Positions 3,533-64,000 of a stretch of 64,000 bases of DNA are shown in pieces. The first letter of the stretch is position 1, and each line of letters begins with the position of its first letter. The notes beneath the pieces are model-generated. The model saw only the letters and a program-made list of their open reading frames with translations, did not search any database and was not told the DNA's origin. The stretch is from Opitutaceae bacterium. Lineage in GTDB: Bacteria > Verrucomicrobiota > Verrucomicrobiia > Opitutales > Opitutaceae. A program made the position numbers and the translations under genes. The DNA lies in assembly GCA_036261745.1 (NCBI GenBank), contig DATAKE010000099.1, positions 38,173-102,172 of the forward strand. The letters run 5' to 3'.

Positions 3533-5094
3533 TCCGTCCTTTTTCCCGCCGTGTTCTTCAAGGTTTCGGAATGGTCGCGGCGCTCGCTTGCGGCCCGGTC
3601 CACGCCGCGGGGGCGGAGGCAACGGCTGCGCCGCCGGAGCTCAGCCTGTCCCTCCGCGGCGTGTCGGGACAGGCCATTGAAGCGGGTGAACCACTGCGTG
3701 TCGCAGTGCGAGTCGACCCGCCAGAGGGCTCGGCGAAAATCGTGCTCGCGCCCGCCAAGGGCTCCTGGATCGACGCCACGACCGTCGAAATTCTTTCCGC
3801 TGACGGAAGCCGCGTCGTTGCCACGGGCAAGCCGGCCGTGACCGCCGCCGAAGCTTCGGTCGTGCTCGATCAGGAGCAGGCGGCGCACGGGTTGTGGTGG
3901 TTTGACGGTGAAAGCATGGCTCCGCTGGCCGCCGGCGAATATTCGGTGCGGGCCCGGCTCGCGATCCGCGACGGCACGGGCTGGAAAGGCGAGAGCGTCT
4001 CGGAGCCGGCGGCGTTTACCGTCGTCGCCGCCTCAAACGATCCGGAGCGCGTCACCCAGCGCGTTCTCGCCCGCGCCCACGCCGCGGTGCTGCAAGACGC
4101 GCCGGCCAAGGCGGCCGGGATCCTCGATGAGGTTCTCAAGCGGGATCCGGATAACATTCCGGTTCTGGAACTGCGCGCGGCACTCTGCCTCAGCGGCGGG
4201 AACCCCGCGTCCGCTTACGTGTGCATCAATCGCGTCCGCACGCTCACCGCGCAACGGGGCGGACATCCTTCGGGGCAGCTGCATGAATTCGCCTCGCGCA
4301 TCGAGGCGGCCCTGGCCGGAAACGAATCCGCCCCGGCGCCGGAAGTTTGGAGCTCGGCGCCACTCAGCGTTTTTACCGCGATCCGCCCGCCCGCCGCGGA
4401 AACCGCCAAGGGTGCAGAGGGCGCTTCGGCGGTTGCGCCGGAACACAGAATCGCTGCGACGGCCCCCGCGAGAGTGGCCGTCCCGTCCGAGCAAAAACAG
4501 GCATCGGCCACTGCATCTCCTCCGTCGCCAACGCCCGTTGCAGTGACCGCAGCGAGTAACGTTTCCCCCGTTGCGCCCGCTGCCAACCCGGGTCCGGGTG
4601 TCGTCGTTCCCGCGGCGGAATTGTCGGACGAAAAAATTATCGCCGACCGGTACGGGCAGTGGGCCTCTGGCGCGACCGCGGGTTCGCAATATGGCCGGAC
4701 GCAATACTCCGCGACGCAGGCGACGGGGGCCCCGAATATTTCGGTGGCGGGCAACAGTCCGCAGGCGTGGTGTCCCGCGGTGAAAGACAAAGGCATGGAC
4801 TGGCTGGAAGTGACCTTTGCGGAACCGGTTCAAGCGACCGAGCTGCGCGTCCGGCAAAACGACGCCAGCGGAGCGATCGTGAAAATCGAGGCGATCGAAG
4901 CCAGCGGCACGGTGCATGTCTGGTGGGAAGGCGTGGATCCGCACAAGCCGGCGGGGGCGCGTGAAATTGTCTGGTTCGCCGTGCGCGTGCCCAAAACGGA
5001 TTACGATGTGGCGCGCGTGAAGCTCACGCTGAACCTCGCGTCCGGTCCCGGCTACAAGGAGATCGACGCGGTGCAACTGGTCGCGGCGCCATGA
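3529..5094 (+). CDS. secreted protein with an Ala/Pro-rich linker and a C-terminal discoidin/galactose-binding-like domain
   Basis: The ATG at 3529 overlaps the upstream TGA (ATGA). It is followed by a signal peptide (MIRPFSRRVLQGFGMVAALACGPVHAAGA). There is a low-complexity A/P/S linker. The C-terminal ~150 aa look like an F5/8-type-C-like beta-sandwich, but that assignment is uncertain. Confidence 0.55.
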   Translation: MIRPFSRRVLQGFGMVAALACGPVHAAGAEATAAPPELSLSLRGVSGQAIEAGEPLRVAVRVDPPEGSAKIVLAPAKGSWIDATTVEILSADGSRVVATGKPAVTAAEASVVLDQEQAAHGLWWFDGESMAPLAAGEYSVRARLAIRDGTGWKGESVSEPAAFTVVAASNDPERVTQRVLARAHAAVLQDAPAKAAGILDEVLKRDPDNIPVLELRAALCLSGGNPASAYVCINRVRTLTAQRGGHPSGQLHEFASRIEAALAGNESAPAPEVWSSAPLSVFTAIRPPAAETAKGAEGASAVAPEHRIAATAPARVAVPSEQKQASATASPPSPTPVAVTAASNVSPVAPAANPGPGVVVPAAELSDEKIIADRYGQWASGATAGSQYGRTQYSATQATGAPNISVAGNSPQAWCPAVKDKGMDWLEVTFAEPVQATELRVRQNDASGAIVKIEAIEASGTVHVWWEGVDPHKPAGAREIVWFAVRVPKTDYDVARVKLTLNLASGPGYKEIDAVQLVAAP

Positions 5095-10971: not shown

Positions 10972-11043
10972 CTGTAGGAGCGGCTTTACGCCGCGACTGG
11001 AATCCGCAAACGCTGCGGTCGCGGCGTAAAGCCGCTCCTACAG
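10972..11043. repeat. REP-like palindromic element, family A (CTGTAGGAGCGGCTTTACGCCGCGA-loop-TCGCGGCGTAAAGCCGCTCCTACAG), copy 1
   Basis: It has 25-bp perfect inverted arms with a ~22-nt loop. It sits between convergent genes (purM-like + and pectate lyase -). Confidence 0.85.
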
Positions 11044-20264: not shown

Positions 20265-22082
20265 TTAGAACCGCGTGCCGGAGCCCATGAGGAAGTGTTC
20301 GGCGACCGGTCCGATCGCGAGGGCCGGCAGGAAAGTCAGCGCACCCACGAGCAGAACCGTGCCGATGAGCAGCACGATGAAGGTGAAGCCCTCGACCTTG
20401 AACGTGCCGGCGCTGGCGGGGACGAGTTTCTTGCCGGCAAGGTTTCCGGCGAGCGCGAGGATCGGGACGATCATCAGGAAACGGCCGGCGAGCATCGCGA
20501 GGCCGAGCGTGGTGTTGTAGTGCGGATCACCGCCGGAGGGATTGGCCGTGAGGCCGGCGAAGGCCGAGCCGTTGTTGCCCACGGCTGAACTGAAGGCGTA
20601 GAGAATTTCGCTGAAGCCGTGTGGTCCTGCATTGTTGAGTCCGGCCTGGCCCCAGCCGGAAACGCTCGCCCATGCGGTGAAGGTAAGCGTAGCGGCGGAC
20701 GTGACGATGAGGACGAGCATCACGAGCTTCACGTCGTAGGCCTGGATTTTTTTGCCGAGATATTCGGGTGTGCGGCCGACCATCAGCCCGGCGATGAAGA
20801 CGGCGAGAATCACGAAGATGAGCATGCCATAGAGGCCGGCGCCGACGCCGCCGAAGATGACTTCGCCGGTTTGCATGTTGAAGAGCGGCACCAGCCCGCC
20901 GATCGGAGTGAACGAATCGTGCATGGAGTTGACGGCACCGCACGAGGCGGCGGTCGTGATCGTGGCGAAGAGGGCGGAGTTGAAGACGCCGAAGCGGGTC
21001 TCCTTCCCCTCCATGTTTCCGTCCGCAGCTGCGACTCCGAGATTTTGGTGGATGGGATTCCCGGCAGCCTCGGCGTTCCAGGCGACGAGTGTGCCCGCGA
21101 CGAACATCGCAAACATCGCGCCCCACACCGCCCAGCCGTGACGCGGGTTTTTTACCGTCCGGCCCAGCCAGTAGGTGAGCGCGCTCGGGATCGCGAAGAT
21201 CGAGAGCATCTGGAAAAAATTGGAGAGCGGCGTGGGATTCTCGAAGGGATGAGCGGCGTTGGCGTTGACGTAGCCACCACCGTTCGTGCCGAGCATTTTG
21301 ATCGCGACCTGCGAGGCCATCGGGCCCTGGACGATCGTCTGCGTGTCGATCGATTTATCGACCATGACCGGAGTTTTGCCGTCGGCTGCGAGGACCGGAG
21401 CGCCGGCGTCGTCGGTTTTTGGAACCTGGATGGAGTAGGGCTCAAATGTTTTCGCGACGGCGTAGGGCCGGAAGTTTTGAATCATGCCTTGCGAAACGAG
21501 AAACAACGCGAAGACGACGGAGAGCGGCGCGAGCAGGTAGTAAGTGACGCGCACCACATCGACCCAGAAGTTGCCGATGGTCTGCGCGCTCTGACGGGCA
21601 ATGCCCCGGACAAGGGCCGCGGCGATGCCGATGCCGGCGGCGGCCGACGTGAAGTTGTGCAGCGTCAGACCGACCATCTGGGAGAAATACGACAGCGTCG
21701 ATTCGCCGCCATAGCTCTGCCAGTTGGTGTTGGTGGCGAAACTGGCGGCGGTGTTGAACGCGAGCGCCGGCGACAGTCCGGCGAAGCCCTGCGGGTTCAG
21801 TGGCAGGAGGTGTTGAAAGCGCAGGATGAAATAGGTGACGAGCAGACCGACGCTGCTGAACGCCAGCAGGGCGAACGTGTAGCCGAGCCAGCCCTGCTCT
21901 TTTCCGGCGTCGATTCCGCACACGCGATACGTGAGCCGCTCGACGGGACGGATCACCGGGTCGAGAAACGTCCGCCCGCGCGGATCGAGCACACGCACGA
22001 GATAAAGCCCGAGCGGCTTCGTGACGAGCAGCAGTGCGCCGACGAAGAGGGCGAATTGAAACCAGGCGTTCGCGTTGTTCAT
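20265..22082 (-). CDS. kdpA: K+-transporting ATPase subunit A
   Basis: 605-aa polytopic protein of the KdpA family. Its ATG directly abuts the kdpF stop. Confidence 0.95.
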
Positions 22083-27898: not shown

Positions 27899-28516
27899 AT
27901 GGAGATCGCATTGGATCAACCCGTGCTGGTTTTGAACCGCTTGTGGCAGGCGGTGAATGTCATCGGCGCGCGTCGCGCTTTCGGGCTCCTGGCCCGCGGG
28001 CACGCGCAGGTCGTGCATCACCACGACGACGATTTCCGGACCTTTGCCCTGCTCGACTGGCTGGATTTCTCGGTGAACAACCCGCCGATCGCGGAGATGG
28101 AAACGGTGCGGACGCCGAGCCGCACGATCCGGCTGCCGCGGGTGATCCTGCTGACATTTTTCGACAAGCTGCCGTGCAAGGAGCTGAAGCTGACGCGCAA
28201 CAATGTTTTCCAGCGCGACAAGTCGACCTGCCAGTATTGCTCCCGCGTGCTGCCGCGCGAACAGCTCAATCTCGATCACGTGATCCCGCGCGACTACGGT
28301 GGGAAAACCACTTGGGAAAACATCGTGTGCTCGTGCATCAAATGTAATTCGCGCAAGGCGAACCGGCTCCCCCACGAGGCGGGCATGCGGCTCGTCCGCA
28401 AACCCATCCGCCCGAAATGGCGTCCGGTTATTTCGCTGGTGCTCGGCAAGCAGCACCACGAAGTTTGGAAGGACTTCCTCGACGTCGCGTACTGGAACGT
28501 CGAGCTCGAGGAATAG
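27899..28516 (+). CDS. HNH endonuclease family protein
   Basis: Two CxxC pairs and an HNH core are present (CQYCSRV...LNLDHVIPRDYGGKTTWENIVCSCIKCNSRK). The upstream in-frame extension of the ORF runs through repeat B and is not part of the gene. Confidence 0.75.
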   Translation: MEIALDQPVLVLNRLWQAVNVIGARRAFGLLARGHAQVVHHHDDDFRTFALLDWLDFSVNNPPIAEMETVRTPSRTIRLPRVILLTFFDKLPCKELKLTRNNVFQRDKSTCQYCSRVLPREQLNLDHVIPRDYGGKTTWENIVCSCIKCNSRKANRLPHEAGMRLVRKPIRPKWRPVISLVLGKQHHEVWKDFLDVAYWNVELEE

Positions 28517-28529
28517 GCCGTCGGCTCGG

Positions 28530-28601
28530 CTGTAGGAGCGGCTTTACGCCGCGATGGCTTTTCGACCCCGGTGAGATCGCGGCGTAAAGCCGCTCCTACA
28601 G
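28530..28601. repeat. REP-like palindromic element family A, copy 2
   Basis: Same 25-bp arms as copy 1. It sits between convergent genes (HNH + and small membrane protein -). Confidence 0.85.
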
Positions 28602-28614
28602 CACAACCGGAGGC

Positions 28615-28845
28615 TTACTTCCCGCTGAATTTCTGGCGGGCGACCAGCCAGAGGACGGCGGCGATGACGACGTCGCCGGCGGCGACCATCGCGCGGATCG
28701 GGAACGGAACCTTGTTCAACGGCAGAGTGACGAGGGCGATGGCGCTCAGCACGAGCAACCCGCAGGCCAGCAGCACGGAGGTTTTCTGACGGGCCCGCTG
28801 CTGGGTGAGAAGCGGGTCGTTCGACGGCGGAAGTTCAGAGGACAT
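28615..28845 (-). CDS. small two-TM membrane protein
   Basis: 76 aa with two hydrophobic helices. No further support. Confidence 0.35.
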   Translation of the reverse strand: MSSELPPSNDPLLTQQRARQKTSVLLACGLLVLSAIALVTLPLNKVPFPIRAMVAAGDVVIAAVLWLVARQKFSGK

Positions 28846-28963
28846 GGCGAAGAGTTTTTGAGCCGCGAATGGATGCGAATGAAGGCGGATGGAAAACAGA
28901 CTCGGACGATTTGCCCGGGGATTTGCGTCGGTTTGCGTGCATTTGCGGTTCGATCGTTCCGGC

Positions 28964-30727: not shown

Positions 30728-30937
30728 GTCGCGCAGTGTGGGGCGGGCGAGTGCGATGGCCAGTATTTCTGAGGATAGGACGGGACCGCTTGTGCTTCCT
30801 CTGGTGTAGCAGCCGAGGTGACGAGGCTGGGCGGCGCAGGGAAAACAGCCTCGTTACCTAAATCAGCCTGCCTAAAACAGCCTCGTTACCTCGGCTGCTA
30901 CGGAGCGCGACGAGGCGGGCCCAGGTCCCGCTTTACT

Positions 30938-34006: not shown

Positions 34007-36847
34007 ATGCCCGAAATCACCAAGAGCTACGAATCGCGTGACGTCGAAAAGAAGTGGTACGCCGCCTGGCAGGCCGCCCACGCGTTCGCCGGCAAGGTCG
34101 TGCCCGGCAAGGAGCCGTACAGCATCGTCATCCCGCCCCCGAACGTCACCGGCGTGCTCACGATGGGACACGTGTTGAACAATGCGATCCAGGACATCCT
34201 GATCCGCCGCGCCCGGCTCGAGGGCAAATCCGCCCTTTGGATTCCCGGCACCGACCACGCCGGCATCGCCACGCAGAACGTCGTCGAGAAACAGGTCCGG
34301 AAGGAAAAGAAGACGCGTCACGACTTCGGCCGCGAAAAGTTCGTCCAGAAAATCTGGGAGTGGCGCGAGGAAAAGGGCGGCATCATTTTGGAACAGCTCC
34401 GCCGGCTGGGCGCCTCGTGCGACTGGGACCGCACGCAGTTCACGATGGACGAGCACTACTCGAAGGCGGTGCTCACGGTGTTCGTCGACCTGTTCAACAA
34501 GGGCAGCATCTACCGCGGCAAGCGGATGGTGAACTGGTGCCCGGCGTCGCAGACGGCGCTGTCCGACGAAGAGGTCAACATGAAGCCCGTCAACGGCACG
34601 ATCTACCGTGTGCGTTACGAGCTCGTGGATTTGCCCGGACAATTCATCGAGGTGAAAACCACGCGGCCGGAAACGATTCCCGGCGACGTGGCGATTGCCG
34701 TTCATCCGGAGGATCCGCGTTACACCGCGCTGCTCGGGAAAAAAGTGCGGCGCCCGCTCGGGCCGGTCGCGGAGATTCCGATCATCGCCGACACGGCGGT
34801 CGACAAGGAGTTCGGGTCCGGCGCGCTGAAGATCACGCCGGCGCACGACAAGGTGGATTTCGAGATCGGTGCGCGGCACAAGCTGCCGATCGTCGACGTG
34901 CTCAATGCCGACGGCACGCTCAACGACTTCGCCGGCGCCGAGCTCGCCGGGATGGAGCGTTTCGCCGGGCGGAAAAAGGCGGCGGAACTATTGAAGGCTT
35001 CGGGCGCGCTGGTGGCCGAGGAGCCTTACGCGAACAACGTCGGTTATTCCGAGCGCGCCGACGTGCCGATCGAGCCGCGCCTCACGTGGCAGTGGTGGCT
35101 GCGTTATCCGCGGATCGAGGAGGCGAAAACGGCGGTGCGCGACGGACACATCAAGTTTTACCCGGCGCGCTGGAGCAAAGTTTACCTGCACTGGCTCGAG
35201 AACATTCAGGACTGGTGCATCAGCCGCCAGCTCTGGTGGGGGCACCGGATTCCGGTCTGGTACCGCAAGGGTCTCGACAAGGAGAAACTCACCGAGGCCG
35301 ATCTGCGCGATCCAACGAAGGTGCACGTTTCGCTCGCCGGTCCCTCCGATCCCGCGAATTGGATCCAGGAAGAGGACGTGCTCGATACGTGGGCGTCCTC
35401 GTGGCTGTGGCCGTTCGCGACGATGGGCTGGCCGGATCAGGCCGGGATGAAGAAGGCGGCCTTCGATTATTTTTATCCGACGACGACGCTCGTGACCGGG
35501 CCTGACATCATTTTCTTCTGGGTCGCGCGCATGATCATGGCGGGGCTGGAATTCACCGGCGGCGCCGCCGCCGGCGAAAGCTTAGAGTCTAGAGCTAAGA
35601 GTCTAGAGCCGGAAAAAGGCAAAGCTCCTGAGTCTGGCTCTCAGCTCTCAGCTCTTAGCTCTCAGCTTTCCGAAAAGGAAATCGCGAAGCGCATCCCGTT
35701 TCGGAACGTTTACTTCACCGGCATCATTCGCGACCAGCAGGGCCGCAAGATGTCGAAGTCGCTCGGCAACTCGCCCGACCCGCTCGACCTGATCGACACG
35801 TACGGCGCGGACGGACTGCGCTTCGGCATCATCTCGATCGCGCCGCAGGGACAGGACATCCGCTTCCAGGAAGACCGCATCGAGAGCGGCAAAAACTTCT
35901 GCAACAAGCTCTGGAACGCCTGCCGGTTCCGCCAGATGAGCGGCGAGGCGGGCGACAACCGCACGCTCGGGGCGATCATGGCCCGGCTTGAGCCGGGGAA
36001 GTTCGACGCGGACGACCACGCGATCCTCGACCGGCTGTTTGCCACGACGCGCGAGGTGGATCGTTGCTTTGTCGAATTTGAATTCAGCGCGGCGGTGCAG
36101 GCGCTCTACGGATTTTTCTGGAACGACTTTTGCGACTGGTACGTGGAGGTCTCGAAATCGAAGCTCCTCACGCCCGACACGAAGGCGAACTGCCTCGCGA
36201 TCCAGGATCTCGTGTTGCGGCAGACACTGCTCCTGTTGCATCCGTTCATCCCGTTTATCACCGAGGAACTCTGGCAGCTGCTCGGGTACGGCCAGCCCGG
36301 CACGTTCATCGAGGACGCGCCGATCGAAAACCCCTCGCAGCTCGCGACGAATGCCGGCGGAAATGTGCTGATCCTCGATCGCGATGCCGTGGCGGTCGTC
36401 GAGAAACTCAAGACTGCCGCCTCGCTCGCCCGCGCGTTGAAGGCCGACCACAATCTCGCGAGCCGGCGTGACGTGCGCTTCTTCGTGACCACGAGCGAAG
36501 CCGACTGGAAGGTCCTCGCGGCGAATCTCGCCAAGCTCACCCGCATGGTGGGCGCATCCGAAATCGTGCGGAAGGAGGCGGTCGATGGCGCGCCGGCGGC
36601 GGTGACGCCCCTCGGCACGCTCTATCTCGATCTCGCGAGCACGATTGATCCGGCGGCGGAAAAAGTGCGCCTCACCAAGGAACTCGATCAGCTGGCCAAA
36701 CACATCGCCGGCACCGAGGCGCGGTTGTCCAACGAAGCGTTCGTCAGCAAAGCCCCGCCGGCCGTGCTCGAGGGTGCGCGGAAGCAGCTCGCCGACCAGA
36801 AGGCGAAACGCGTCGAACTCGAACGGTTGCTGAAATCGCTGGGTTAG
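34007..36847 (+). CDS. valS: valine--tRNA ligase, carrying an in-frame ~31-aa insertion encoded by a palindromic repeat
   Basis: HIGH-type (PPPNVTGVLTMGHVLN) and KMSKS (KMSKSLGNSPDP) motifs are present, with a C-terminal coiled coil. The insertion ESLESRAKSLEPEKGKAPESGSQLSALSSQLSEKE lies between FFWVARMIMAGL and the KMSKS region. Confidence 0.95.
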   Translation: MPEITKSYESRDVEKKWYAAWQAAHAFAGKVVPGKEPYSIVIPPPNVTGVLTMGHVLNNAIQDILIRRARLEGKSALWIPGTDHAGIATQNVVEKQVRKEKKTRHDFGREKFVQKIWEWREEKGGIILEQLRRLGASCDWDRTQFTMDEHYSKAVLTVFVDLFNKGSIYRGKRMVNWCPASQTALSDEEVNMKPVNGTIYRVRYELVDLPGQFIEVKTTRPETIPGDVAIAVHPEDPRYTALLGKKVRRPLGPVAEIPIIADTAVDKEFGSGALKITPAHDKVDFEIGARHKLPIVDVLNADGTLNDFAGAELAGMERFAGRKKAAELLKASGALVAEEPYANNVGYSERADVPIEPRLTWQWWLRYPRIEEAKTAVRDGHIKFYPARWSKVYLHWLENIQDWCISRQLWWGHRIPVWYRKGLDKEKLTEADLRDPTKVHVSLAGPSDPANWIQEEDVLDTWASSWLWPFATMGWPDQAGMKKAAFDYFYPTTTLVTGPDIIFFWVARMIMAGLEFTGGAAAGESLESRAKSLEPEKGKAPESGSQLSALSSQLSEKEIAKRIPFRNVYFTGIIRDQQGRKMSKSLGNSPDPLDLIDTYGADGLRFGIISIAPQGQDIRFQEDRIESGKNFCNKLWNACRFRQMSGEAGDNRTLGAIMARLEPGKFDADDHAILDRLFATTREVDRCFVEFEFSAAVQALYGFFWNDFCDWYVEVSKSKLLTPDTKANCLAIQDLVLRQTLLLLHPFIPFITEELWQLLGYGQPGTFIEDAPIENPSQLATNAGGNVLILDRDAVAVVEKLKTAASLARALKADHNLASRRDVRFFVTTSEADWKVLAANLAKLTRMVGASEIVRKEAVDGAPAAVTPLGTLYLDLASTIDPAAEKVRLTKELDQLAKHIAGTEARLSNEAFVSKAPPAVLEGARKQLADQKAKRVELERLLKSLG
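35577..35669. repeat. palindromic element built from CTNAGAG / CTCTNAG heptamers, located inside the valS ORF in frame
   Basis: The left arm AAGCTTAGAGTCTAGAGCTAAGAGTCTAGAGCC is the imperfect reverse complement of the right arm GGCTCTCAGCTCTCAGCTCTTAGCTCTCAGCTT. The same element family is at 63891..63992. Confidence 0.8.
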
Positions 36848-36871
36848 GCCTGCGTCTTTTCAAAACCCGAG

Positions 36872-36942
36872 CTGTAGGAGCGGCTTCACGCCGCGACCGC
36901 AGCGGGTCCGTTGCCCGTCGCGGCGTAAAGCCGCTCCTACAG
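36872..36942. repeat. REP-like palindromic element family A, copy 3
   Basis: Same arms with one mismatch (CTTCACG). It is immediately 3' of valS. Confidence 0.85.
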
Positions 36943-36991
36943 TTGGGGCATCGTGCGGCGGATACTTGCTGATTCCGCCGTCTCGATTTGA

Positions 36992-37672: not shown

Positions 37673-38689
37673 ATGAAAAAAGCGCTCATCACCGGCATCA
37701 CGGGACAGGACGGTTCATATCTCGCCGAGCTGTTGCTCGACAAGGGTTACGAAGTGCACGGCGTCATTCGCCGCGCCTCGACCTTTAATACGAGCCGGAT
37801 CGACCATCTCTACCGGGATCCGCACGTAAACGGCGTGCGCCTGCATCTTCACTACGGCGATCTGGCCGATTCGGTTCAGATGGTAAAGTTGCTCTATCAG
37901 CTTCAGCCGGACGAGATTTACAACCTGGGCGCGCAGTCCCACGTCCGCGTGTCGTTCGATGTCCCGGAGTACACGGGCGATGTGGTCGGTCTCGGCGCCC
38001 AGCGCATTCTCGAGGCCATCCGCGAGGCGGGTTTGGTGAAGAAATGCCGTTACTACCAGGCCTCGTCGTCCGAGATGTTCGGCAAGGTGCAGGAAATTCC
38101 GCAGACAGAAAAGACGCCTTTCTGGCCCCGCTCGCCCTACGGTTGCGCGAAGCTTTACGCCTACTGGCTGACGGTGAACTACCGCGAGAGCTACAATCTC
38201 CATGCGAGCAACGGCATCCTCTTCAATCACGAGAGCCCCCGCCGCGGCGAAACGTTCGTGACGCGCAAAATCACCCGCGCCGCCACCCGCATCAAGGTCG
38301 GCCTCCAGGACTCGCTTTACCTCGGCAACCTCGATGCGCAGCGCGACTGGGGCTATGCGAAGGAATACGTCGAGATGATGTGGATCATGCTCCAGCAGGA
38401 TAAACCCGACGATTACGTGGTTGGCACGAACGAGACCCACAGTGTGAAGGAATTCTGCCAGGTGGCGTTCGGCCGTCTCGGCCTGGACTGGGAGAAATAC
38501 GTGAAGTACGACCAGCGCTACGAGCGCCCCGCCGAGGTGGAACTCCTTATCGGCGATTCCGCGAAGGCGAAGAAGCAGCTCGGCTGGGAGCCGAAAGTGA
38601 AGTTCAAGGAGCTCGTCGAACTCATGGTCGATCACGATCTCGAGCTCGCGAAGCAGGAGCTCCAAATCAGCAAGCTGCCGAAGGCCTGA
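37673..38689 (+). CDS. gmd: GDP-mannose 4,6-dehydratase
   Basis: [36 protein letters not shown]...; the classic Gmd SDR-family sequence across the full length. Confidence 0.95.
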
Positions 38690-39722: not shown

Positions 39723-39793
39723 CTGTAGGAGCGGCTTTACGCCGCGATCGGAACCGGTCCGTCTTCGGGTCGCGGCGTAAAGCCGCTCCTACA
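39723..39793. repeat. REP-like palindromic element family A, copy 4
   Basis: Same arms. It is immediately 3' of fcl and upstream of prfB. Confidence 0.85.
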
Positions 39794-46341: not shown

Positions 46342-46535
46342 CGTAGTTAAACGATCTCACATGGCAAATGGCTCGTGCGACGAACTGGGTTCAGGAAAAC
46401 ACGCTGCCGAACACCACCCGCCTTCGTCGACCAGGGAACAGGCAGGGCAGGCCCCCGGAATTTTCCGCAAACTCCCACGCCGGGGCTGCGCGCGCCTCCC
46501 GTTTCCGTCCCAAGGCACGGCCCCCAAAAAAGTGT

Positions 46536-46612
46536 CATCTATTAGATGACACTTTTGCCATGCGGCAGAGGGAGAGCTGAATTTTTTTAGTGTCGTCTAA
46601 TAGATGACACTT
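46536..46612. terminator. two inverted copies of an AT-cored palindrome (AAAAGTGTCATCTAWTAGATGACACTTTT), likely a bidirectional intrinsic terminator pair
   Basis: Each has ~10-bp stems flanked by A/T runs. They lie just 3' of the hybrid kinase and 5' of the lipoprotein gene. Confidence 0.5.
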
Positions 46613-46621
46613 TAAGCGGCG

Positions 46622-62955: not shown

Positions 62956-63091
62956 ACACTCGCCTCGATCTCTCCGACATGCCCTCCACCAATTGCCAGT
63001 TACCAACTACTGATTACCTGCAGCGTCGCGTGCGTAGTTGGTAGTTGGAAATTAGTAATTGGTCCCGAGCGCTCAGATCCGTTCACCCTCC

Positions 63092-63886
63092 ATGTCCGCC
63101 TTACTTCAGCTGCAGTCGGTCGAAACCTTCATCGGCGGCTCCCGCATCCTCCGCGGCGTCGATCTCGAGATCAATGCGGGCGAGGTCGTCGCCCTCATGG
63201 GCCGCAACGGCGTCGGCAAAACCACCACGCTGCGGGCGATCACCGGCGTGCTGCCGGTGCGCGCGGGCTCAATCACCTTCGACGGCAAACGCATCGACCG
63301 GCTCGCTTCCGATGTCCGCGCCCGCGCCGGCATCGGCTATGTGCCGCAGGGGCGCGATATTTTTCCGCATCTCACCGTCGAGGAAAACCTGCACGTCGGC
63401 CTCGTCGTTCACAACCGCAAGGGCGCCGACGCCCGCGCCGCGCTCGAGCGGGTCTACGCGCTGTTCCCCGTGCTGAAAGACATGCTCTCCCGCAAAGGCG
63501 GCGTGCTGTCCGGCGGACAGCAGCAGCAGCTCGCGATCGGCCGCGCGCTGCTGACGAATCCCAAGCTCCTGATCCTCGACGAACCCACCGAGGGCATCCA
63601 GCCGTCGATCATCGACCAGATCGGCGACACGTTGAAAAAATTGAAGGCGCCGCGCGCCCCGGAGGAGGTTTTCGAACGCGCCGCCAAGGACGTCCGGGAA
63701 ATCACGAATGCGGTGAAGCAGCTCAAGCAGGAGCACGCGCTCGCGATCCTGCTCGTCGAGCAATACGTGGATTTCTGCCGCGAGGTCGCCGACCGCTACT
63801 ACGCGATGGACCGCGGCGTCGTGGTCGTGTCCGGCCCGATCGCCACCCTCACCGACGAAGTCGTGAAACAACATCTGCAAGTCTGA
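63092..63886 (+). CDS. urtE: urea ABC transporter ATP-binding protein UrtE
   Basis: Walker A reads GRNGVGKTT. Also SGGQQQQLAIGRAL and LILDEPTEGIQPSII. It carries an extra ~25-aa segment before the conserved LLVEQ motif. Confidence 0.9.
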   Translation: MSALLQLQSVETFIGGSRILRGVDLEINAGEVVALMGRNGVGKTTTLRAITGVLPVRAGSITFDGKRIDRLASDVRARAGIGYVPQGRDIFPHLTVEENLHVGLVVHNRKGADARAALERVYALFPVLKDMLSRKGGVLSGGQQQQLAIGRALLTNPKLLILDEPTEGIQPSIIDQIGDTLKKLKAPRAPEEVFERAAKDVREITNAVKQLKQEHALAILLVEQYVDFCREVADRYYAMDRGVVVVSGPIATLTDEVVKQHLQV

Positions 63887-63890
63887 CCCG

Positions 63891-63992
63891 AAGCTGAGAG
63901 CCAAGAGTCCAGAGCTGAGAGCAAGAACCAGAAAATAAATCCCCGCTCGCCTCCGATCCTGCTCTCAGCTCTAGACTCTCAGCGCTTAGCTT
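63891..63992. repeat. CTNAGAG-heptamer palindromic element, copy 2 (intergenic, 3' of urtE), followed by a T-run
   Basis: The arms AAGCTGAGAGCCAAGAGTCCAGAGCTGAGAGC and GCTCTCAGCTCTAGACTCTCAGCGCTTAGCTT are imperfect reverse complements. It is the same family as the element inside valS. It is followed by TTTTTCTTTT, so it likely also acts as a terminator. Confidence 0.8.
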
Positions 63993-64000
63993 TTTCTTTT

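Follow-up and report, generated by a model that had tools for sequence, protein, structure and literature searches.

We analysed a window of 64,000 nucleotides (positions 38,173 to 102,172 of contig DATAKE010000099.1) from the metagenome-assembled genome (MAG) of an Opitutaceae bacterium (assembly GCA_036261745.1), in which a palindromic repeat made of tandem heptamers lies in frame inside valS, the gene of valine--tRNA ligase (ValRS). The encoded protein is 100% identical to P0001, the deposited MAG protein "MAG TPA: valine--tRNA ligase [Opitutaceae bacterium]". Only tRNA-synthetase domains, and no intein domain, were recorded for it. The gene and its relevant parts are listed below with their positions in the window. 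Here, long-type and short-type refer to the two forms in which one loop of the enzyme occurs among orthologues.

34007-36847, plus strand: valS, valine--tRNA ligase, 946 aa (open reading frame list; NCBIfam PRK05729 equivalog, 1064.9 bits)
35552-35578, plus strand: short G+C-rich palindrome TTCACCGGCGGCG / CGCCGCCGGCGAA, directly 5' of the element and part of the long-type cassette (inverted repeat, 92% complementary)
35555-35689, plus strand: long-type loop cassette, T517-K561, in place of a 9-residue stretch ([M/T]-[R/H]PGE-PLER) of short-type orthologues (alignment of 120 orthologues)
35576-35670, plus strand: AGAG-type heptamer hairpin, in frame, codons E524-S555, ESLESRAKSLEPEKGKAPESGSQLSALSSQLS (inverted repeat, fold, pattern enrichment)
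35576-35613, plus strand: left arm of this hairpin, GAAAG + CTTAGAG TCTAGAG CTAAGAG TCTAGAG + CCGGA (four heptamers; inner-end motif of the family, AGAGCC(A/G)GA)
35614-35632, plus strand: apical loop, which varies between copies (inverted-repeat call)
35633-35670, plus strand: right arm, TCTGG + CTCTCAG CTCTCAG CTCTTAG CTCTCAG + CTTTC (inverted repeat; Tandem Repeats Finder, TRF)
35668-35706, plus strand: second small hairpin, 3' of the element, in which the SEKEIA codons pair with the RIPFRN codons (inverted repeat, 78% complementary)

An earlier sequence-only reading of the window had described a palindrome of about 93 nt, a multiple of three, in frame inside valS. We found the palindrome at this place by its arms, its fold and its pattern enrichment. 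It is imperfect and consists of two 38-nt arms (76% complementary), which are built of tandem YYNAGAG heptamers and separated by a spacer of 19 nt. This adds up to 95 nt and thus, although the reading frame stays open, whether the length is divisible by three depends on the choice of its ends. TRF reported a period of 7 at 35637-35667 (4.4 copies, 91% matches), and 14-nt direct repeats within the arms shared 93% identity. When the RNA of 35570-35680 (111 nt) was folded, we obtained a free energy of -53.2 kcal/mol, compared with -36.7 ± 3.9 kcal/mol for 200 dinucleotide shuffles (z = -4.2), and none of the 200 shuffles folded as well. The element is open in the valS frame only. Small hairpins like that at 35552-35578 also precede the inserts at the loci L009 and L005 (L numbers designate DNA loci from other genomes, P numbers orthologous proteins), and 3' hairpins comparable to that at 35668-35706 were seen at L009, L082, L083 and L208.

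A window scan with the 16-nt two-unit pattern CTNAGAGNNNAGAGCT, allowing up to one mismatch, yielded 7 matches where 0.13 were expected, and these matches were confined to 35581-35665 and 63901-63982. The latter interval belongs to a second copy, which the sequence-only reading had also placed 3' of urtE.

63891-63992, no strand assigned: second AGAG-type heptamer hairpin, intergenic, 5 nt after the urtE stop, then TTTTTCTTTT (inverted repeat, fold z = -6.7)

The arms of this copy (63891-63926 and 63957-63992) are 83% complementary, and the open reading frame upstream was identified as UrtE by an NCBIfam profile match. Comparison of the two window copies indicated that their arms are alike and their loops unrelated. 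A consensus terminator scan did not call the urtE-side copy. We also considered that the valS palindrome might be an artefact of codon usage. The second window copy and at least 118 further AGAG-type hairpins in other genomes, several per genome, led us to reject this idea, so that the assignment to a dispersed palindromic repeat held. As a separate observation, 63887-63999 is open in exactly one frame, which continues urtE past its TGA stop (PEAESQESRAESKNQKINPRSPPILLSALDSQRLAFS...); the chance of this is 1 in 3. In addition, UrtE itself (~63630-63730) matched its NCBIfam profile in two stretches with ~30 apparent extra residues (KKLKAPRAPEEVFERAAKDVREITNAVKQLKQE), which are not made of heptamers.

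In the enzyme, the element is located between the helix FFWVARMIMAGLEF and the strand RIPFxNVYF, which precedes the KMSKS motif. When ValRS was aligned with the Thermus thermophilus enzyme (1GAX), the alignment broke at this loop, where 45 query residues (519-563) faced 2 residues (509-510) between G508 and P511. An AlphaFold2 model calculated from an alignment of 36 close orthologues reached a mean pLDDT (predicted local distance difference test) of 59.8, and residues 456-625 remained below 50. Because of the poor model the insert could not be placed in three dimensions, and the sequence alignment to 1GAX was used alone. Thus, the proposal of a tolerated surface-loop insertion agrees with the short loop of 1GAX, whereas the surface placement was not confirmed.

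For comparison of the loop we aligned the 120 best ValRS relatives (77-83% overall identity). In 89 of them the loop is 4 aa long, nearly always RPGE, and the protein has a length of 910 aa, while the loops of the remaining 31 measure 14-57 aa. Elsewhere in the 120 sequences there was no indel of more than 3 aa, except for N-terminal extensions in 2 sequences. The nearest relatives, P0003 (DNA locus L084, which served as the insert-free sequence at the DNA level) and P0007, carry the short loop and share 85-86% identity with the window enzyme outside of it; P0007 also shares the gene order of the window (glnD-valS-flavodoxin-gmd). The net difference between the window and short-loop orthologues amounts to 36 codons. 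The roughly 31 extra residues of the sequence-only reading were thus correctly assigned to this loop, but their number was set too low, and the peptide quoted there itself has 35 aa. It can be seen from these data and from the genome scan described below that the valS insert is in frame, absent from most orthologues and a member of a multi-phylum family.

The 31 inserts fall into several peptide families. Insert DNA from independent assemblies consisted of tandem-heptamer hairpins throughout, but the heptamer differed:

AGAGCTN/AGAGTCN in the valS loop: window, L081, L082, L083, L207
GAATGAC in the valS loop: L009, L058, L205
GGAGCAN in the valS loop: L005, L006
GCAGATC in the valS loop: L203
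GGARACC in the valS loop: L206
AGAGGCR in the valS loop: L208

The GAATGAC heptamer also occurs elsewhere in the L058 genome. Most inserts folded far better than their shuffles (z = -3 to -8.5, with -8.5 for the window in this allele comparison), and the hairpin has decayed in the L082, L203 and L206 alleles (z = -1.4 to -1.9). Among ValRS proteins with 96-98% identity outside the loop, insert lengths of 27, 32, 34, 41 and 53 aa were seen, and such changes in length and content among near-identical enzymes characterize the loop as hypervariable. The L082 allele departs from the remaining AGAG-type alleles in both arms (TCGAGAG / CTCTCGA), and pairing is kept. All valS alleles examined, including 7 obtained by tblastn independently of gene calls, were in frame and free of stop codons. 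Taken together, these data indicate that the valS loop is a recurrent, hypervariable acceptor of heptamer hairpins, with at least 6 families across the Opitutaceae, and the assumption of a single insertion event had to be given up.

The sequence-only reading had expected a precise indel of about 93 nt bounded by the repeat arms. The orthologue alignment contradicted this expectation, since the flanking codons differ on both sides: long alleles read G...[hairpin]...L[ST]xxEIxxRIPF and short alleles RPGEP(L/M/I)ERRIPF (RPGEPLERRIPF). In the closest long/short pair (P0037/P0087, loci L203/L204), which shares 96.9% protein identity outside the loop and ~92% DNA identity, the whole block differs. 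We counted 20 mismatches in the 56 alignable nt beside the indel compared with 4 in the neighbouring ~350 nt, and those beside the indel included synonymous changes in the RIPF codons. No target-site duplication was visible at the valS element. The differing flanking codons point to an exchange of short and long loop cassettes by recombination. Insert-bearing ValRS proteins were scattered over an unbootstrapped neighbour-joining tree from which the loop columns had been excluded, and P0076 is a recombinant of two allele types. The short/long dimorphism recurs in a deeper clade, whose ValRS proteins share 63-65% identity with that of the window, and the 5' piece GESPVNSKPQ is common to L016 (64%) and P0021 (80%). 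More distant Verrucomicrobia (L021-L029, 56-58% identity) have a loop of 10-13 aa that ends with L[ST]xxEIxxRIPF and does not form a hairpin. We read these sequence patterns as two old loop haplotypes, of which the long one would be the hairpin acceptor. The cassettes have probably been moved between lineages by homologous recombination via the extremely conserved flanks.

To describe the repeat family, we scanned one genome per GTDB species for two AGAG units, a gap of 15-45 nt and two CTCT units. This search gave at least 118 stretches with 120 matches listed, and on inspection nearly all of the 120 proved to be true multi-unit heptamer hairpins. Their arms consist of NAGAGYY units on one side and RRCTCTN units on the other, most commonly 4 or 5 units per arm, and AGAGTCG units are common. 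The inner end is conserved and reads AGAGCC(A)GA(A)...TTCTGGCTCT (116 copies, 232 arm ends). Between copies the loop varies; the innermost AGAG core is separated from the innermost CTCT core by 26 nt in the median, and the median total length among the matches listed was 81.5 nt. Beyond the heptamer arrays we found no conserved outer terminus in the sampled copies, and the outer-end consensus contained neither GTAG nor CGTC. The longest match between the 20-nt flanks of 115 copies averaged 3.77 nt compared with 3.65 nt after shuffling, and thus no target-site duplication was detected, but the fuzzy ends could hide very short ones.

Many of the hosts are Planctomycetota (Pirellulales, Planctomycetaceae, Bythopirellula, Schlesneria). 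The family also occurs in Verrucomicrobiota (Opitutaceae, Oleiharenicola, Rariglobus, Lacunisphaera, Chthoniobacterales) and furthermore in Gemmatimonadales, Acidobacteriota, NC10, Nitrospirota, Latescibacterota, Lentisphaeria and a few others. Several genomes carry 3-6 copies each, and up to at least 6 loci came from a single MAG. Such elements normally sit just outside genes, and for 76 of the 120 copies a long open frame ends no more than 60 nt away, although this count is confounded by stop codons inside the elements. The 12-nt tails of the copies contained 2.7 T on average and thus are not T-rich. Pure AGAGCTG, AGAGCTA or AGAGCTT arrays have stop codons in every frame. Across the sample we counted 1.04 open frames per copy compared with 0.97 in shuffled sequences, and 37 of the 120 copies had no open forward frame at all. 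Since open frames are no commoner than in shuffles, the coding copies represent a filtered subset and not the purpose of the family.

In Rfam the window had no match at the gathering thresholds, and under permissive thresholds the element matched mostly eukaryotic miRNA-hairpin look-alikes, all far below the cut-offs. A literature search for the literal two-unit string found nothing. Thus, we encountered no description of the heptamer-hairpin family in Rfam and in the literature searched, and this absence is limited to those resources. A profile built from 16 AGAG-type insert peptides returned 5 weak matches (E > 0.01) from a collection of 5.8 billion proteins, but such a profile is too short and too low in complexity to serve for a census.

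Not all copies of the family are intergenic. Long open frames span 26 of the 120 sampled copies, and at least 12 of the 120 lie inside Pfam-verified genes, always in frame, with domain matches that span or flank the element. The following in-gene copies were identified by Pfam:

L115, L092, L116: DnaE, HHH_6 helix-hairpin-helix domain, same site in three Opitutaceae genomes
L173: LeuRS, edge of the editing domain, Gemmatimonadaceae
L145: UvrA
L192, 24-6077, minus strand: UvrA-like protein of 2018 aa, Opitutaceae MAG, with 2 full hairpins and at least 5 solo right (CTCT) arms, all in frame
L193: SNF2 helicase
L120: PSD1/DUF1553 protein
L186: type II secretion ATPase
L187: PQQ-repeat protein
L096: exosortase
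L107: T2SSF protein

All in-gene copies read as ...E-S/L-R-A-x-S...S-x-L-S-x-L..., and the repeats of the UvrA-like protein as ...SQLSALxSQL.... The solo CTCT arms of this protein indicate that half elements exist and that one gene can be colonized many times. DnaE resembles ValRS in its allelic structure. When we compared 118 Opitutaceae orthologues, about half had a 10-aa stretch, RE(M/N)FTPVGDK, between PDVNES and IRFGLAGIKGVG. The others carried 12-52 aa with distinct flanks (PVFR...AA) and with AGAG- and AATGAC-type peptides. The underlying DNA formed a [C/G]AATGAC heptamer hairpin in L209 (z = -5.8) and AGAGCTN hairpins in L115 (z = -5.5) and L092 (z = -4.3), and the ~58 long DnaE alleles keep the frame without stops. 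Because DnaE shows the same short/long loop, ValRS appears as one instance of a general pattern in the Opitutaceae.

The fetched loci covered 8-22 kb each, and none exceeded ~89% identity to the window. At an orthologous intergenic spacer, L135 and L198 carry an AGAG-type element that the window lacks. L009 and L205 (~95% DNA identity) have hairpins at shared intergenic sites, which differ in unit number and loop content. Across all fetched loci, tandem arrays formed 40 regions at period 7 compared with 0-14 at periods 5, 6, 8, 9 and 10. The window itself contains a third heptamer hairpin of another family:

62990-63062, no strand assigned: CAATTRC x4 / GYAATTG x4, urtD-urtE spacer just upstream of the urtE start (TRF period 7 at 63034-63063; fold)

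This hairpin shows that there are several heptamer families in the source genome. Its units read CAATTGC CAGTTAC CAACTAC TGATTAC ... TAGTTGG TAGTTGG AAATTAG TAATTGG.

Four smaller observations were made in the fetched loci. In L205 (~21300-21480) the loop of an AAGTAAC heptamer hairpin holds a nested GTAG-type palindrome resembling repetitive extragenic palindromic (REP) sequences (GGTAGGGCGA...TCGCCCTACC); the palindrome is absent from the corresponding hairpin of L009 (19740-19810). Conversely, L009 contains at ~4290-4465 a structured insert of ~175 nt with CACTAAT / ATCAGTG-type repeats, which represents another repeat type and is cleanly absent from L205. In L001 (6545-7020) the gene of a 117-aa "four helix bundle protein" (TIGR02436, 23S rRNA intervening-sequence / Avd-like) lies between the inverted arrays (GGATTGC)x4 and (GCAATCC-like)x4, which indicates that heptamer arrays can enclose a small gene in a long stem. 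AT-rich heptamer arrays (e.g. AAACATT, GGTTTGA, AATTCAT, AATTGAG) were frequent around valS in L062, L067, L071, L075, L077 and L079, which come from distant low-G+C genomes (41-42% ValRS identity).

Among known systems, the Rickettsia palindromic elements (RPEs) come closest to the in-frame copies. These palindromic repeats insert into housekeeping genes without loss of the frame (Ogata et al. 2000, 2002, summarised in PMC10969869). According to this summary, RPEs are short and dispersed, a large share of them lies in frame in unrelated housekeeping genes, and they are translated and apparently tolerated by the fold. Here too, a palindromic repeat lies in frame in valS, dnaE, the genes of LeuRS, UvrA and SNF2 and others, and its translation is predicted from the sequence. 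Our elements differ from RPEs in three respects. The hosts are free-living Verrucomicrobiota, Planctomycetota, Gemmatimonadota and others rather than Rickettsia, the arms are built as arrays of tandem heptamers, of which one genome has several families, and one loop is re-used by different families, with alleles that are apparently exchanged by recombination. Since the host belongs to the Opitutaceae, the element may at most be called an RPE analogue.

Tandem heptamers are known as cyanobacterial short tandemly repeated repetitive (STRR) sequences, as GGGGAYT of Nostoc, as GGGAATC of Xanthomonas (some inverted) and as heptanucleotide repeats of Calothrix, and heptamer repeats are reported there to be over-represented in bacteria (PMC4692102). 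TAACTGA repeats show a patchy cross-phylum distribution over Beggiatoaceae, Cyanobacteria and Bacteroidetes (PMC4679880). Our elements share with STRR-like arrays the 7-nt tandem units, the mostly intergenic location, the many copies per genome, the patchy occurrence across phyla and a mechanism that is not known. The head-to-tail 7-nt array is seen in the valS element itself (TRF period 7, 4.4 copies). The published arrays are mainly direct repeats that are discussed as G-quadruplex or protein-binding sites, whereas here an inverted pair of arrays forms one long hairpin. In-frame copies in essential genes were not met in the passages on those arrays. The heptamers also differ: YYNAGAG, GAATGAC, GGAGCAN, GCAGATC, GGARACC, AGAGGCR and CAATTRC are unlike the CCCCAGT, TTGGTCA, CAACAGT, GGGAATC, GGGGAYT and TAACTGA of described families.

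To the sequence-only reading the element had looked like a REP-type or miniature inverted-repeat transposable element (MITE). The REP type was rejected, and a MITE in the strict sense was not confirmed. REPs and bacterial interspersed mosaic elements (BIMEs) are mobilised by the RAYT transposases, have a size of 20-40 nt and a GTAG or CGTC head, and are extragenic (PMC3733652). They resemble our elements in being small, imperfectly palindromic, conserved in the arms and variable in the loop; both lack target-site duplications, often lie at gene 3' ends and reach high copy numbers. In contrast, the heptamer hairpins measure 60-110 nt, are made of heptamer units, have no GTAG/CGTC head and are often intragenic. 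For the valS element a GTAG/CGTC-headed REP was rejected because it has 95 nt, ends with GAAAGCT.../...AGCTTTC and is intragenic. The window also contains what appears to be a true GTAG-type REP family (e.g. 36866-36948), which is clearly distinct from the heptamer hairpins. Of the MITE features, the small size and the many dispersed copies are present, but the whole valS element is itself the inverted repeat, neither a target-site duplication nor a conserved outer terminus was found, and no parent insertion sequence was seen in the fetched 8-22 kb loci. Thus, the elements do not pass the tests that define GTAG/CGTC REPs or, within the tests made, those that define MITEs. Further coding palindromes have been described as Coxiella QMITE (PMC5896051), as PARCEL (PMC2996958) and in mitochondrial genes of Nematomorpha (PMC6649704). 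Together with intragenic enterobacterial repetitive intergenic consensus (ERIC) elements they represent inverted-repeat DNA that is translated within coding sequence and provide a precedent for protein tolerance. In the heptamer hairpins we found neither terminal inverted repeats apart from the body nor a target-site duplication or parent insertion sequence, and architecture and taxa differ from these cases. In summary, they combine two known themes, coding palindromes and bacterial tandem heptamers.

The reading that we favour, with a probability of about 0.72, is that the valS palindrome is a tolerated and translated in-frame copy of this dispersed family of heptamer-hairpin repeats. The repeats would spread at the DNA level by a process that depends on hairpin or heptamer structure and not on a particular target sequence. 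Sites already occupied by a hairpin would be used again and altered through slippage of units, nesting and partial deletions, and whole loop cassettes would travel between lineages by homologous recombination through conserved flanking codons. Selection would retain copies that keep the frame, avoid the stops common in AGAG-type units and fall in permissive loops, in which a flexible Ser/Glu/Leu-rich stretch should be harmless. The peptide and the mRNA hairpin probably have no required function in ValRS, since inserts of 27-53 aa occur among 96-98% identical enzymes and the hairpin has decayed in some alleles. Several points weigh against this reading. The difference at valS is not a clean insertion, and an insertion origin of this copy, as opposed to the import of a ready-made cassette, was not demonstrated. 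The long-type 3' flank is present in the hairpin-free loci L021-L029, so that the long loop may predate the elements. Neither mobility machinery nor a target-site duplication or conserved terminus came to light, so that the term mobile derives from the distribution only. The ValRS tree was calculated without bootstrapping, translation of the insert is predicted from the sequence, and the AlphaFold2 model (pLDDT 59.8) did not establish the solvent exposure of the loop or its distance from the tRNA.

The main rival holds that the segment arose in situ as a lineage-specific low-complexity linker, by slippage of 7-nt units with template switching between the arms, and that no copy ever moved between loci. 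It accounts for the local dynamics, since unit number and loop content change fast at fixed sites, both in the ValRS inserts and at the intergenic sites of L009 and L205. It is also consistent with the missing target-site duplications and termini, with the lack of a clean insertion at valS, and with the many different period-7 arrays of the fetched loci (40 regions vs 0-14) and the heptamer excess reported for bacteria (PMC4692102). What it does not explain are the shared heptamers. Heptamer and inner-end motif are found again, with a similar number of units, at unlinked loci of one genome and in different phyla, the families of the valS insert reappear at one loop of dnaE as a second gene, an intergenic site is filled in L135 and L198 and empty at the orthologous position of the window, and independent slippage is not expected to converge on AGAGCC(A)GAA...TTCTGGCTCT. 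We therefore regard an origin in situ as unlikely. A functional module, in which a hairpin is kept for its effect on translation or decay of the valS mRNA, or a peptide as a flexible interaction arm, appears quite improbable. Long-type alleles persist in several deep Opitutales lineages, most inserts fold far better than shuffles (z = -3 to -8.5), two small extra hairpins flank the element, and the L082 difference on both arms keeps pairing; the latter could equally stem from another source copy, as the family often contains AGAGTCG units. On the other hand, 74% of the close orthologues lack the insert, the inserts belong to unrelated heptamer families with peptides and lengths that differ between near-identical proteins, some alleles have lost the hairpin, and the same elements occur in unrelated genes and between genes.

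Two further explanations concern the mRNA and the assembly. A strong hairpin in a coding region, such as the valS segment, is a feature of known translational bypass, and the segment might be removed or bypassed by intein-like excision, mRNA processing or ribosomal hopping. However, the long alleles keep the frame without stops (31 ValRS, the tblastn loci and ~58 DnaE), whereas many family members have stops in every frame, and bypass or excision would not impose such a filter. Moreover, no intein domain is recorded and cleavage of the mRNA at the hairpin would destroy an essential message, so that we consider this explanation very improbable. An assembly or binning artefact might be suspected, since palindromes can lead to misassembly and the sequence of the window was taken from a MAG. 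Its probability becomes negligible in view of homologous inserts that occupy this codon, with intact flanks, in dozens of independent NCBI, JGI and ENA assemblies.

Beyond the valS copy, the heptamer hairpins might constitute a cross-phylum repeat class that spreads through an unrecognised mechanism with a specificity for the 7-nt period and the hairpin form. Such a mechanism would preferentially re-enter hairpin sites and would yield long-lived short/long dimorphisms in surface loops of essential proteins (ValRS, DnaE, probably others), which are exchanged by recombination. That it should be specific to periodicity and form rather than to sequence is suggested by the common architecture that several unrelated heptamer families show in a single genome. 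We put this extension forward as a tentative and rather doubtful proposal. If it were true, the core proteins of free-living bacteria would generally and continually be supplied with new peptide segments.

Until now, palindromic repeats that lie in frame in housekeeping genes have been regarded largely as a peculiarity of Rickettsia, plus scattered cases. We now see the same phenomenon in free-living members of the Verrucomicrobiota, Planctomycetota and Gemmatimonadota, where the element is of a distinct type made of heptamer arrays. It affects central enzymes (ValRS, LeuRS, DnaE, UvrA), and the same loops take up different element families, which amounts to a natural map of insertion-tolerant loops in essential proteins. 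The system may thus serve as a tractable case of how selfish or structural DNA becomes protein sequence, and it offers a handle on the long-noted, unexplained excess of heptamer repeats in bacterial genomes. In practical terms, the inserts inflate apparent divergence and create recombination mosaics in phylogenetic marker genes.

The window contains other repeats. The family that resembles classical GTAG-headed REPs is a separate palindromic family with the arms CTGTAGGAGCGGCTTTACGCCGCGAC / GTCGCGGCGTAAAGCCGCTCCTACAG and is present at 10972-11043, 28507-28624, 36866-36948 and 39724-39793; its copy at 36866-36948 begins 19 nt past the valS stop. At ~28860-28950 we noticed a hairpin with arms of tandem 10-nt units, GCGAATGGAT GCGAATGAAG GCGGATGGAA ... 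GATTTGCGTC GGTTTGCGTG CATTTGCGGT, which has the architecture of the heptamer hairpins but a period of 10. A strong inverted repeat at 30806-30901 (24-nt arms, 96% complementary) surrounds internal repeats of AAAACAGCCTCGTTACCT, and another one at 46529-46613 has 25-nt AT-rich arms, AAAGTGTCATCTATTAGATGACACT.

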